Made by a program: the position numbers
Shown here: positions 3,001-6,704 of the stretch, piece after piece
Position numbering within the stretch: position 1 is the stretch's first letter
Layout: each line of letters begins with the position of its first letter
IMG/VR virus record: IMGVR_UViG_2711768018_000012
Length of the DNA stretch: 6,704 bases
From: a virus
Lineage: Duplodnaviria > Heunggongvirae > Uroviricota > Caudoviricetes
Reading direction: 5' to 3' (one strand)

Positions 3001-6000
3001 CAGAGCAAAAGTACGGCGGAATCTGCAGCAACGCGCGCTGAGACAGCGGCAAAACGGGCAGAGGATATTGCATCCGCCGTGGCGCTTGAGGATGCGAGCA
3101 CGACGAAAAAGGGGATAGTACAGCTCAGTAGTGCGACTAACAGCACTTCCGAGTCACTGGCGGCAACACCAAAAGCCGTTAAGGCCGCGTATGACCTGGC
3201 TAACGGGAAATACACCGNNNNNNNNNNNNNNNNNNNNNNNNNNNNNNNNNNNNNNNNNNNNNNNNNNNNNNNNNNNNNNNNNNNNNNNNNNNNNNNNNNN
3301 NNNNNNNNNNNNNNNNNNNNNNNNNNNNNNNNNNNNNNNNNNNNNNNNNNNNNNNNNNNNNNNNNNNNNNNNNNNNNNNNNNNNNNNNNNNNNNNNNNNN
3401 NNNNNNNNNNNNNNNNNNNNNNNNNNNNNNNNNNNNNNNNNNNNNNNNNNNNNNNNNNNNNNNNNNNNNNNNNNNNNNNNNNNNNNNNNNNNNNNNNNNN
3501 NNNNNNNNNNNNNNNNNNNNNNNNNNNNNNNNNNNNNNNNNNNNNNNNNNNNNNNNNNNNNNNNNNNNNNNNNNNNNNNNNNNNNNNNNNNNNNNNNNNN
3601 NNNNNNNNNNNNNNNNNNNNNNNNNNNNNNNNNNNNNNNNNNNNNNNNNNNNNNNNNNNNNNNNNNNNNNNNNNNNNNNNNNNNNNNNNNNNNNNNNNNN
3701 NNNNNNNNNNNNNNNNNNNNNNNNNNNNNNNNNNNNNNNNNNNNNNNNNNNNNNNNNNNGTGGCTGGATTCTCAGGGAGCATTTAACCATCCATACTGGA
3801 TGTGCAAGGGTTCCTGGTCTTATGGCAATAATAAAATCATTACTGATACTGGCTGCGGTAATATTCATCTCGCCGGAGCTGTCATTGAAGTAATGGGGAT
3901 AAAGTCAGCGATGACGATCCGCATTACCACTCCGACCACATCCAGCGGTGGCGGAACAACCAACGCCCAGTTTACCTATATTAATCACGGAACAGATTAT
4001 TCACCTGGCTGGCGAAGGGACTATAACTCCAGAAATAAGCCAACGGCATCAGAGATCGGGGCGCTACCGTCAGGTGGAACAGCAGTATCATCAGTTAATC
4101 TGGCTTCAAAAGGTCGGGTAGCCGCGCTGACAGACAATACGCAGGGGGCAGCAGGTCTTGAGTTATACGAGGTGTATAACAACGGATATCCAACAGCGTA
4201 TGGAAATATCATTCACCTGAAAGGGATGACAGCCGTTGGCGAAGGTGAGTTACTCATCGGCTGGAGTGGTACAAGCGGTGCTCATGCTCCGGCATTTATT
4301 CGTTCACGACGGGATACGACCGACGCAAACTGGTCGCCGTGGGCGCAGCTTTACACCTCGGCTCATCCTCCTGCAGAGTTTTATCCAGTCGGTGCACCAA
4401 TCCCGTGGCCATCAGATACCGTTCCGTCTGGTTATGCCCTGATGCAGGGGCAGACTTTTGACAAATCTGCTTACCCGAAACTTGCAGCCGCTTATCCGTC
4501 AGGCGTGATCCCTGATATGCGTGGCTGGACGATTAAGGGCAAGCCCGCCAGTGGTCGTGCCGTATTGTCTCAGGAACAGGATGGCATTAAATCGCACACC
4601 CACAGCGCCAGCGCATCCAGTACGGATTTGGGGACGAAAACCACATCGTCGTTTGATTACGGCACTAAATCCACGAATAACACCGGGGCGCATACGCACA
4701 GTCTGAGCGGCTCTACAAGTTCAGCTGGGGCCCACCAACATAGTCAGACTGGGCCCAGAACGAATAGCGGGAGTCAACCTACTGGAATGTTTCCGGCAGG
4801 GAGTACTCAAGTTAGCGGGACTAATCAGGTTGGTATCAGTGGCTCATTAACCAGTGGCACCTCCCAATGGGTAGGTAAATCATCTTCAGAAGGAAACCAT
4901 ACACACTCACTGTCCGGCACAGCAGCATCTGCGGGTGCACACGCGCATACTGTCGGTATTGGTGCTCATACGCACTCTGTTGCGATTGGTTCACATGGAC
5001 ACACCATCACCGTTAACGCTGCTGGTAACGCGGAAAACACCGTCAAAAACATCGCATTTAACTATATTGTGAGGCTCGCATAATGGCATTCAGAATGAGT
5101 GAACAAGCACGGACCATAAAAATTTATAACCTGCTGGCCGGAACTAATGAATTTATTGGTGAAGGTGACGCATATATTCCGCCTCNNNNNNNNNNNNNNN
5201 NNNNNNNNNNNNNNNNNNNNNNNNNNNNNNNNNNNNNNNNNNNNNNNNNNNNNNNNNNNNNNNNNNNNNNNNNNNNNNNNNNNNNNNNNNNNNNNNNNNN
5301 NNNNNNNNNNNNNNNNNNNNNNNNNNNNNNNNNNNNNNNNNNNNNNNNNNNNNNNNNNNNNNNNNNNNNNNNNNNNNNNNNNNNNNNNNNNNNNNNNNNN
5401 NNNNNNNNNNNNNNNNNNNNNNNNNNNNNNNNNNNNNNNNNNNNNNNNNNNNNNNNNNNNNNNNNNNNNNNNNNNNNNNNNNNNNNNNNNNNNNNNNNNN
5501 NNNNNNNNNNNNNNNNNNNNNNNNNNNNNNNNNNNNNNNNNNNNNNNNNNNNNNNNNNNNNNNNNNNNNNNNNNNNNNNNNNNNNNNNNNNNNNNNNNNN
5601 NNNNNNNNNNNNNNNNNNNNNNNNNNNNNNNNNNNNNNNNNNNNNNNNNAGAAAAACTGTTCCGGATCCGGGAGGCGGAAGAAACAAAAAACAGCCTGAT
5701 GCAGGTAGCCAGTGAGCATATAGCGCCGCTTCAGGATGCTGTGGATCTGGAGATCGCAACGGAGAAAGAAACCTTGTTGCTGGAAGCTTGGAAAAAGTAT
5801 CGGGTGTTGCTGAACCGTGTTGATACATCAACTGCACCGGATATTGAATGGCCAGTAGCACCTATAGGGTAAATTCGTAATGATTACCTAAATACGTTAT
5901 TCTTTTGTTAAAAAAGTGATTTTGCTATAGGTAGGGAGTATGTTCTTGGATTAAGAATAAAAAATCGCCATGAAAGAGCTTCATGGCGAGTACATAAACG

Positions 6001-6704
6001 TACAAAATGTGATGAAAGTAGAGTGGCGTAAGCCACTATATTAAGATATGACAATAGCGAAGAAAAGTAAATAACATTTTATGGACGTTTAATTGTTAAT
6101 TATAAAAACTAGAGTGCCCGATATTGTTTATCTTGCTTTAAAATAATGTACTCAAACCAAATTTTTGAGCTAAAAGCTCAAATAATATAAATGCAATAAT
6201 AATGTTTAATAAGACAATTAGCTTGCTTTGTATTTTCATTTCGGAATACTGTTAAGTAACTTTGATGACCCTAACAATAGATCGGAATTTTCTTAGAGTC
6301 AATGGTCACTGTTTTTGCTTGCAAAGCAAATGTTTTGGTGGTTATAAGTCGTCTTAATATAGTCACGCATGCAACTTGTTCCATGCGGAGATTAAAGATT
6401 GGAATATAACGCGAAGATGGAATTAAATTACATTTGCAATAATTAATTTATTATTACTCAATAATTACCGATATTATTATTGTAAATTAATCATTAGAAT
6501 GCAAAAAGAAATGTAACGGCAAAATAAGAGGACGATAGCTGAGAAAAAAGCGTGCTTTCCCAATCTGGGGCAAATCACGTCTGAATGACACCTGAAAACA
6601 GGTGGTAGCCTCAAGAAGGCTGGTGATGCTGCCAACTTACTGATTTAGTGTATGATGGTGTTTTTGAGGTGCTCCAGTGGCTTCTGTTTCTATCAGCTGT
6701 CCCT

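Follow-up and report, generated by a model that had tools for sequence, protein, structure and literature searches.

A cargo module of lambda-like prophages that probably encodes a small membrane protein related to YncL

The stretch of viral DNA considered here (IMG/VR record IMGVR_UViG_2711768018_000012, class Caudoviricetes; 6,704 nucleotides, referred to as a whole as the window) is the tail end of a lambda-like prophage and carries, beyond the tail-fibre assembly gene tfa, an AT-rich region in which a compact unit lies on the minus strand. This unit is best explained as a self-contained 578-bp moron, that is, a mobile cargo module, encoding a 33-residue inner-membrane paralogue of the stress-response micro-protein YncL, and to this explanation as a whole we would assign a probability of roughly 0.7. 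An earlier note on the same DNA had drawn attention to the parts of the unit, namely a promoter-like site, a hydrophobic open reading frame (ORF) of 33 codons and a hairpin followed by a U-tract; it had proposed that they form phage cargo coding for a small membrane peptide, had named a type I toxin-like gene and a small RNA (sRNA) as alternatives, and had cautioned that AT-rich DNA generates such motifs by chance. Its observation is confirmed and its interpretation is supported. A 33-codon ORF in AT-rich DNA is unremarkable when taken alone, and the decisive evidence is comparative: the unit stands above chance because of its homology to YncL, the purifying selection on the ORF and the block-wise conservation of promoter, ORF and terminator.

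Homology of the encoded peptide to YncL

The ORF occupies positions 6138–6239 on the minus strand (33 codons and a stop) and encodes MKIQSKLIVLLNIIIAFILFELLAQKFGLSTLF, predicted to be a YncL-like, single-pass small membrane protein. It begins with an ATG that is the only possible start, because an in-frame TAA lies five codons upstream, and its hydrophobic core, residues 7–23, has a mean Kyte-Doolittle value of 2.94, compared with 2.34 for YncL. A search of small-protein families, which the earlier note had recommended, was made against the 18,950 models of NCBIfam and gave a single match, NF000537 ("stress response membrane protein YncL"), with scores of 25.0 bits (E = 1.3e-5) and 23.5 bits (E = 3.7e-5) for two variants of the peptide. 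When compared by BLASTP with YncL of Escherichia coli K-12 (b4598; 31 amino acids, MNVSSRTVVLINFFAAVGLFTLISMRFGWFI), the peptide is identical at 11 of 28 positions (39%) in an ungapped alignment with an E-value of 2e-7. The residues common to the two proteins are N12, A16, L19, F20 and the C-terminal [K/R]-F-G, so that the peptide combines these conserved YncL residues with one central hydrophobic helix, which is the layout of the family.

That the match does not merely reflect hydrophobic composition is indicated by two controls, both of which used a hidden Markov model (HMM) built from three YncL orthologues. The peptide scored 20.5 bits with this model, whereas the maximum among 20,000 shuffles of its own sequence was 15.3 bits; and in a set of 2,687 distinct natural ORFs of 20–80 amino acids, taken from 646 kb of related DNA, scores of about 20 bits were confined to the phage peptides, the best unrelated ORF scoring 6.8 bits. 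A back-translated DNA pattern of the core recovered only genuine yncL in the E. coli and Citrobacter reference genomes and, in viral contigs, only the E. coli-phage type together with one doubtful AT-rich outlier. Judged by its sequence, the ORF product is a diverged paralogue of YncL, and the small membrane peptide proposed in the earlier note is thus homologous to a small membrane protein that has been validated. The next-best score in the natural-ORF control, 11.5 bits, belonged to a similar small ORF (MKKAITLILMNIISALFLFFLIIQNFGFWGHE) at positions 3449–3565 of an unrelated AT-rich viral contig (L054), which may be either a distant relative or a coincidence selected by the pattern.

The other resources searched contain little that resembles the peptide. 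Pfam and PADLOC gave no match, PHROGs gave a noise-level match for one variant only (E = 0.59), and a phmmer search of 1.84 billion protein representatives retrieved nothing beyond the peptide and a frameshifted form of it. Neither the NCBI nor the UniRef protein sets searched contain the peptide, and its only occurrences are two unnamed gene calls (ENA; JGI/IMG).

Selection on the reading frame

For the comparative analysis, 69 related loci from genome, phage and viral-contig records were compared first, and a later tally that included metagenome contigs comprised 79 complete units. The sequences form four clades, which are about 100–98%, 96%, 91–94% and 79% identical to the window, and scans of metagenomic and viral sequences for deeper homologues recovered the same four clades only. 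The earlier note had held that a gene here should be abandoned if the frame were not conserved in homologous islets; the 33-codon frame is in fact conserved in all clades and is intact in 78 of the 79 complete units.

Relative to the 79% clade (L003), the ORF differs by 18 substitutions and no indel. Eleven of these are synonymous and seven non-synonymous, corresponding to proportions of 0.56 for synonymous sites (pS) and 0.088 for non-synonymous sites (pN), with pN/pS of about 0.16, and the changes are distributed over the three codon positions as 7/1/10. Relative to the 93% clade (L005), there are five synonymous changes and one non-synonymous change (pS 0.25, pN 0.013). The synonymous excess against the L003 clade is significant by Fisher test (p = 2e-5), and in a simulation that placed 18 substitutions randomly, with the same mix of transitions and transversions, the probability of retaining an intact ORF with no more than five amino-acid changes was 2.3e-4. 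To judge from these substitutions, the ORF is under purifying selection at the protein level.

The same synonymous bias contradicts a purely non-coding RNA, in which the ORF would be incidental and the transcript possibly a MicC-like porin regulator. Such an RNA would fit the missing Shine-Dalgarno motif, the strong conservation of the 3' end and a full-length, if very weak, alignment of positions 5951–6078 to the Rfam MicC family (22.8 bits, E = 0.92 and 0.34). Given the synonymous excess, a second codon position that is nearly invariant, a frame that is kept in every clade and the homology of the ORF to a known protein, we regard this alternative of the earlier note as very unlikely, although the conserved 3' end leaves room for an additional function at the RNA level.

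Promoter-like site, terminator and conservation by blocks

The promoter-like site was recovered by a consensus scan, with 9 of 12 matches, at 6274–6302 on the minus strand, just as first described: a -35 element TTGACT (6302–6297), a spacer of 17 nt and a -10 element TATTGT (6279–6274) that is preceded by a C. Within the module, no other site of this kind precedes the ORF, and from the position of the -10 element a 5' untranslated region (UTR) of about 27 nt (6240–6267) is predicted. At the other end, the hairpin within 5951–5989 has the form of an intrinsic terminator stem-loop at 5989–5965, with 10 Watson-Crick pairs, one G-U pair and a loop of 3, followed by TTTTTTATTC, of which the U-tract (U6-A-UU) occupies 5964–5955. 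With an 11-pair stem that includes five G-C pairs, a folding energy of -15.2 kcal/mol and 91% conservation, it has the characteristics of Rho-independent terminators, and terminator-like sites are enriched in the region (2, against 0.4 ± 0.8 in shuffles).

Three further candidates on the same strand were rejected. A second terminator-like site, at 6182–6164 inside the ORF, has a stem that is broken in the divergent clade. An ORF of 37 amino acids at 6271–6384, annotated as hypothetical in phage PhiR70_1, is without its ATG in three of the four clades, and an ORF of 48 amino acids at 5908–6054 crosses the terminator and has a frame broken by T-deletion variants.

Identity to the most divergent clade, which is the reference for all block values given here, rises and falls with the predicted parts of the unit. 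It is 77% in the upstream DNA, 90% in the promoter from the -35 to the -10 element, 74% in the 5'UTR and 80% in the ORF; on the 3' side it is 56%, with indels, in the spacer after the stop codon, 80% in a U/C-rich block, 93% in the distal 90 nt and 65% downstream, between the terminator and the tfa stop codon. This pattern argues that promoter and terminator are conserved as functional blocks.

The block pattern also bears on the possibility that the unit consists of chance motifs in neutral AT-rich intergenic DNA and has no function. Promoter-like hexamers and short ORFs arise readily at 30% GC, annotation pipelines predict no gene at this place, and promoter-like sites are no denser than background; as far as these sites are concerned, the caution of the earlier note was justified. 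For the unit as a whole, however, conservation in blocks that match the predicted parts, purifying selection, specific homology to YncL and an ORF that is intact in nearly all copies make an origin by chance scarcely credible.

A type I toxin-antitoxin system, in which a hydrophobic membrane toxin would be kept in check by an antisense or divergent small RNA, would account for some of the same features. Like the toxins Hok, TisB, ZorO and ShoB, and like YohP, the phage product is a hydrophobic peptide of fewer than 50 residues; many type I toxins share its poor ribosome-binding signals and long structured UTR, and the homologue YncL, when produced, reduces viability and depolarises cells (PMC12542507). 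A promoter-like site on the plus strand, at 6048–6077, could moreover drive an antisense RNA across the ORF. This site is, however, one of five chance-level sites, its -35 element is changed in the divergent clade, and the plus strand shows no terminator. Searches of Pfam, NCBIfam, PHROGs and PADLOC linked the peptide to no type I toxin family and only to YncL, and no antitoxin RNA could be identified; YncL itself has no known antitoxin. Taken together, these points make a type I system improbable. The only notable inverted repeat, 25 nt long (6022–6046 and 6352–6376; 76% complementary, with a perfect core of 12 nt, TCTTAATATAGT), has one arm in the 3' hairpin region and the other upstream of the promoter, and is not conserved in the divergent clade. 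A fold-back of the hok type, pairing the initiation region with the 3'UTR, was likewise rejected, as the pairing is not above chance (p = 0.16).

A constrained 3' untranslated region

The 3'UTR on the minus strand consists of two parts of very different character. The proximal part (6045–6137) comprises the variable spacer (6080–6137) and the U/C-rich block (6045–6079), and the distal block of 90 nt (5955–6044) contains a hairpin AGUGGC-UUAC-GCCACU (6037–6022), a linker (6021–5990) that includes the invariant CUCUACUUUCAUCA, the terminator and the U-tract. No other part of the unit is as conserved as the distal block, which shows six mismatches in 90 nt where neutral sites differ at 35–56% (synonymous sites at 56%) and has never been seen apart from the ORF. 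Positions 5955–6095 fold at -34.6 kcal/mol, with a z-score of -6.7 relative to shuffles, and the consensus fold contains a long-range helix, the 6-bp hairpin and the terminator; one pair runs through the series G-C, G-U, A-U, and several changes in the stems preserve wobble pairing. It is plausible that the constrained distal 3'UTR adds control at the RNA level, which could act on transcript stability, through binding of the chaperones Hfq or ProQ, or by way of a 3'-derived sRNA.

A tentative extension of the YncL-paralogue reading is that an sRNA of the Hfq/ProQ type arises from the 3' end of the transcript (about 90–140 nt, 5955 to about 6095), either by release or by separate transcription, and acts in trans through the linker. 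Beyond its conservation, its stable fold, the pairing-preserving changes and its constant association with the ORF, the block has features that would suit such a role, in that the conserved linker is unstructured and not needed by the terminator, while the terminator itself is strong and provided with a U-tract. The mRNA of Salmonella yncL was itself first catalogued as an sRNA, STnc1110 (PMC5437024). Against a separate RNA stand the covariation, which does not exceed that of shuffled controls (the observed value is attained by 305 of 500 shuffles, in an alignment of little sequence diversity), the failure of any Rfam family to match above noise, and the absence of a convincing internal promoter; short gene-conversion tracts could also give rise to the high identity. 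The candidate internal promoter, a conserved TATAAT/TACAAT, has no -35 element at a workable spacing. In its fullest form, in which the gene would have a dual function, with a YncL-like depolarising micro-protein and a 90-nt 3' end serving as a trans-acting or chaperone-binding RNA, so that one 310-nt moron would reprogramme both the membrane and the post-transcriptional regulation of the lysogen, the idea is speculative and rather unlikely to hold.

In outline, the 3' part resembles MicC (RF00121), IpeX, DicF and Esr41, with which it shares a prophage-borne location, an internal hairpin, an AU-rich linker, a terminator and a U-tail. It differs from known sRNA families in that the Rfam scores are at noise level, as seen from the scores and thresholds for MicC (22.8 and 90), Esr41 (15.6 and 102) and Aar (19.6 and 60). 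A relationship to MicC in particular was rejected: the gathering threshold is far above the score obtained, and genuine MicC reaches 125 bits in the same program; the divergent clade has changes in the 5' motifs that recall MicC, and the predicted duplex with the ompC leader is no better than those of shuffles (p = 0.22). When aligned globally with MicC, the sequence does only marginally better than its shuffled versions (p = 0.012), and shuffling removes the terminator that is common to any such sRNA.

The unit as phage cargo

The whole module extends over 578 bp (5873–6450, minus strand), starts right after the tfa stop codon and has a GC content of 0.28–0.31, compared with 0.47–0.63 in the neighbouring phage genes. 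It is always located 3' of tfa and is found in this position in prophages at three chromosomal sites, namely att-lambda, Qin/ydfJ and beside sitABCD. In L003 (4546–4645) and L004 (about 4585–4690), the module is followed by a remnant of about 105 nt of another tfa 3' end, 75–77% identical to positions 5770–5873 of the window. This direct repeat of the tfa end, which brackets the module in two lineages, is an insertion or recombination scar and identifies the module as a discrete insertion that only some of the related phages carry. Its cargo gene is flanked by a promoter-like site and a terminator, which are putative as read from the sequence, and both are conserved. The unit is therefore probably a phage moron that encodes a small membrane peptide and would be expressed from the repressed prophage.

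As the earlier note had supposed, the cargo travels next to tail-fibre genes, and it does so in prophages as well as in free phages. The module is present in 828 of 5,426 complete E. coli genomes (about 15%, and thus absent from 85%), exclusively in chromosomes and with up to four copies in each genome, which amounts to some 940 copies, and the sequenced phages that carry it are mEp332, PhiR70_1 and ev099. Among the 60 E. coli records listed, none has an annotated feature under the match; among the phage records, only PhiR70_1 has one, which is the different, hypothetical ORF of 37 amino acids mentioned above.

Its closest analogues as cargo are the lambda morons lom and bor and the genes of the lambda b region. 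Like them, the module is an autonomous cassette with a promoter-like site and a terminator, has an odd base composition, has its place near the prophage end, past the tail-fibre genes, and forms a discrete insertion among otherwise different phages. It differs in being much smaller and in its predicted product, a micro-protein of the inner membrane and not a virulence factor of the outer-membrane or lipoprotein kind.

Comparison with chromosomal yncL and proposed function

In E. coli, YncL is an inner-membrane micro-protein that is induced in response to heat shock, in minimal medium and in stationary phase; cells that produce it are sublethally depolarised, mount a phage-shock response, synthesise less protein and condense their nucleoids (PMC12542507). 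It is a substrate of RseP in vivo (PMC10470546). Expression of Salmonella yncL, the product of which is the orthologue STM14_1932, is sigma-S dependent (PMC5437024), and yncL mRNA is contacted by the sRNA RprA and by the prophage sRNA KilS.

The phage peptide and YncL are of similar length (33 and 31 amino acids) and share a short basic N-terminus, a 17-residue hydrophobic helix that contains Asn and the C-terminal motif already described. Both genes have a monocistronic layout with a terminator of their own, and their putative promoters are alike around the -10 element, which reads C-TATACA followed by TAGGGG on the chromosome and C-TATTGT followed by TAGGGT in the phage unit. The differences concern context and the untranslated parts. 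Chromosomal yncL lies between patD and ortT in K-12, and beside patD in Citrobacter, whereas the phage gene follows tfa; the phage unit lacks the GGTGG ribosome-binding site; and its 3'UTR is about 180 nt long with a conserved 90-nt end, compared with about 96 nt before the convergent patD in the case of yncL. The phage gene is also AT-rich and, as noted, confined to about 15% of strains, in up to four copies.

We infer that the unit is transcribed and translated. The promoter would be a weak one of the sigma-70/sigma-S type (C-TATTGT), with a transcript start near 6267, and would give rise to a monocistronic transcript of about 310 nt that ends near 5956. From this stress-type promoter of its own, the prophage would express a YncL-like peptide which, by analogy with YncL, would insert into the inner membrane. 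Membrane depolarisation has been demonstrated for both YohP and YncL (PMC12542507), and the same effect is predicted for the phage peptide: once accumulated, it may partly dissipate the membrane potential and so modulate the membrane energisation of the lysogen. As a consequence, the lysogen might shift to a low-metabolism, stress-tolerant state or become a poorer host for superinfecting phage. On the lambda map, N-antiterminated leftward transcription proceeds from pL. The unit has the orientation of the lambda b-region genes, and leftward read-through from pL in the circularised phage genome could read it in the sense direction; late rightward transcription running on from tfa would cross it in the antisense direction.

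Several considerations weigh against the explanation as a YncL-related moron. The 25-bit score lies below the equivalog cut-off of 35 bits for NF000537, by which NCBI criterion the peptide is not an orthologue, and its function is extrapolated from a paralogue about 35–39% identical that was studied by expression from plasmids. Promoter-like sites occur at background frequency (5 found, against 3.9 ± 1.5 in shuffles), and because of this the promoter-like signal means nothing when taken alone; the -10 element, TATTGT, is moreover weak. As the earlier note had already remarked, the sequence contains no Shine-Dalgarno motif before the ATG, whereas chromosomal yncL has GGTGG. One metagenome copy (L076) has its start codon changed from ATG to ATA, and a frameshift variant, ending ...AQKIWFEYIILKQDKQYRAL, is found in one public gene call (P0003); on account of these two losses, the gene appears to be dispensable in some hosts. 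The comparison draws on only four clades, the deepest at about 79% identity, which limits its power, and a literature search with the peptide and hairpin sequences found nothing.

Genomic context of the window

The genes that precede the module in the window are those of a lambda-like tail region: the C-terminal part of J (222–1346), lom (1417–1899), a long side-tail-fibre gene between lom and tfa, and tfa itself, which ends at 5872. The side-tail-fibre gene and tfa are not fully readable in the window, as they are interrupted by masked positions (a single N at 2263 and N runs at 3218–3759 and 5186–5649). GC content is about 0.5 in the tail genes (range 0.47–0.63) and falls to 0.28–0.33 past tfa. 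An Rfam match to IS009 at 5700–5832 on the plus strand (145 bits, above threshold) lies wholly within the tfa coding sequence and most likely represents conserved tfa sequence, not a separate RNA gene.

The window closes, in its last ~82 bases (6623–6704), with the left end of an IS1 element, GGTGATGCTGCCAACTTACTGAT..., whose insertion in the cargo region separates the YncL-like unit from a gene for an AraC-family regulator; in strain 2009C-3133, an annotated IS1 transposase gene is found just past the equivalent junction. Relatives without this interruption are prophages at the lambda attachment site, adjoining ybhB and bioA, and in them the AT-rich DNA continues for another 1.5 kb, up to the AraC-family regulator gene. 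The regulator (L001, 7506–8249; 247 amino acids) is closest to YdeO (E = 2e-43) and GadX. With this putative YdeO/GadX-like AraC protein, the cargo region carries a second paralogue of a host stress-response gene.

A piece of 85 bp at 6537–6621 recurs alone, with 93–100% identity, near the right ends of other lambdoid prophages, often beside a tiny "capsid protein" annotation. A query with the full islet matched 1,343 E. coli genomes, the unit itself being present in only the 828 reported above.

Significance

Small membrane proteins and morons are both known kinds of system, and what is new here is a phage-borne, unannotated paralogue of YncL. Annotation routinely misses small membrane proteins, and in this case a conserved and selected one has escaped annotation in infectious lambdoid phages and in about every seventh complete E. 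coli genome. The interest of the unit lies in this prevalence, in its invisibility to annotation, in its constrained 3'UTR and in the use of paralogues of host stress genes as phage cargo. The unit shows that a paralogue of a stress-response micro-protein of the host has been captured and spread by phages. Should the peptide share the depolarising effect of YncL, lysogeny could alter stress tolerance, persistence, sensitivity to antimicrobial peptides and susceptibility to other phages, and lysogens of laboratory strains carrying mEp332 or PhiR70_1 would provide a simple system in which to establish what YncL-type peptides do.

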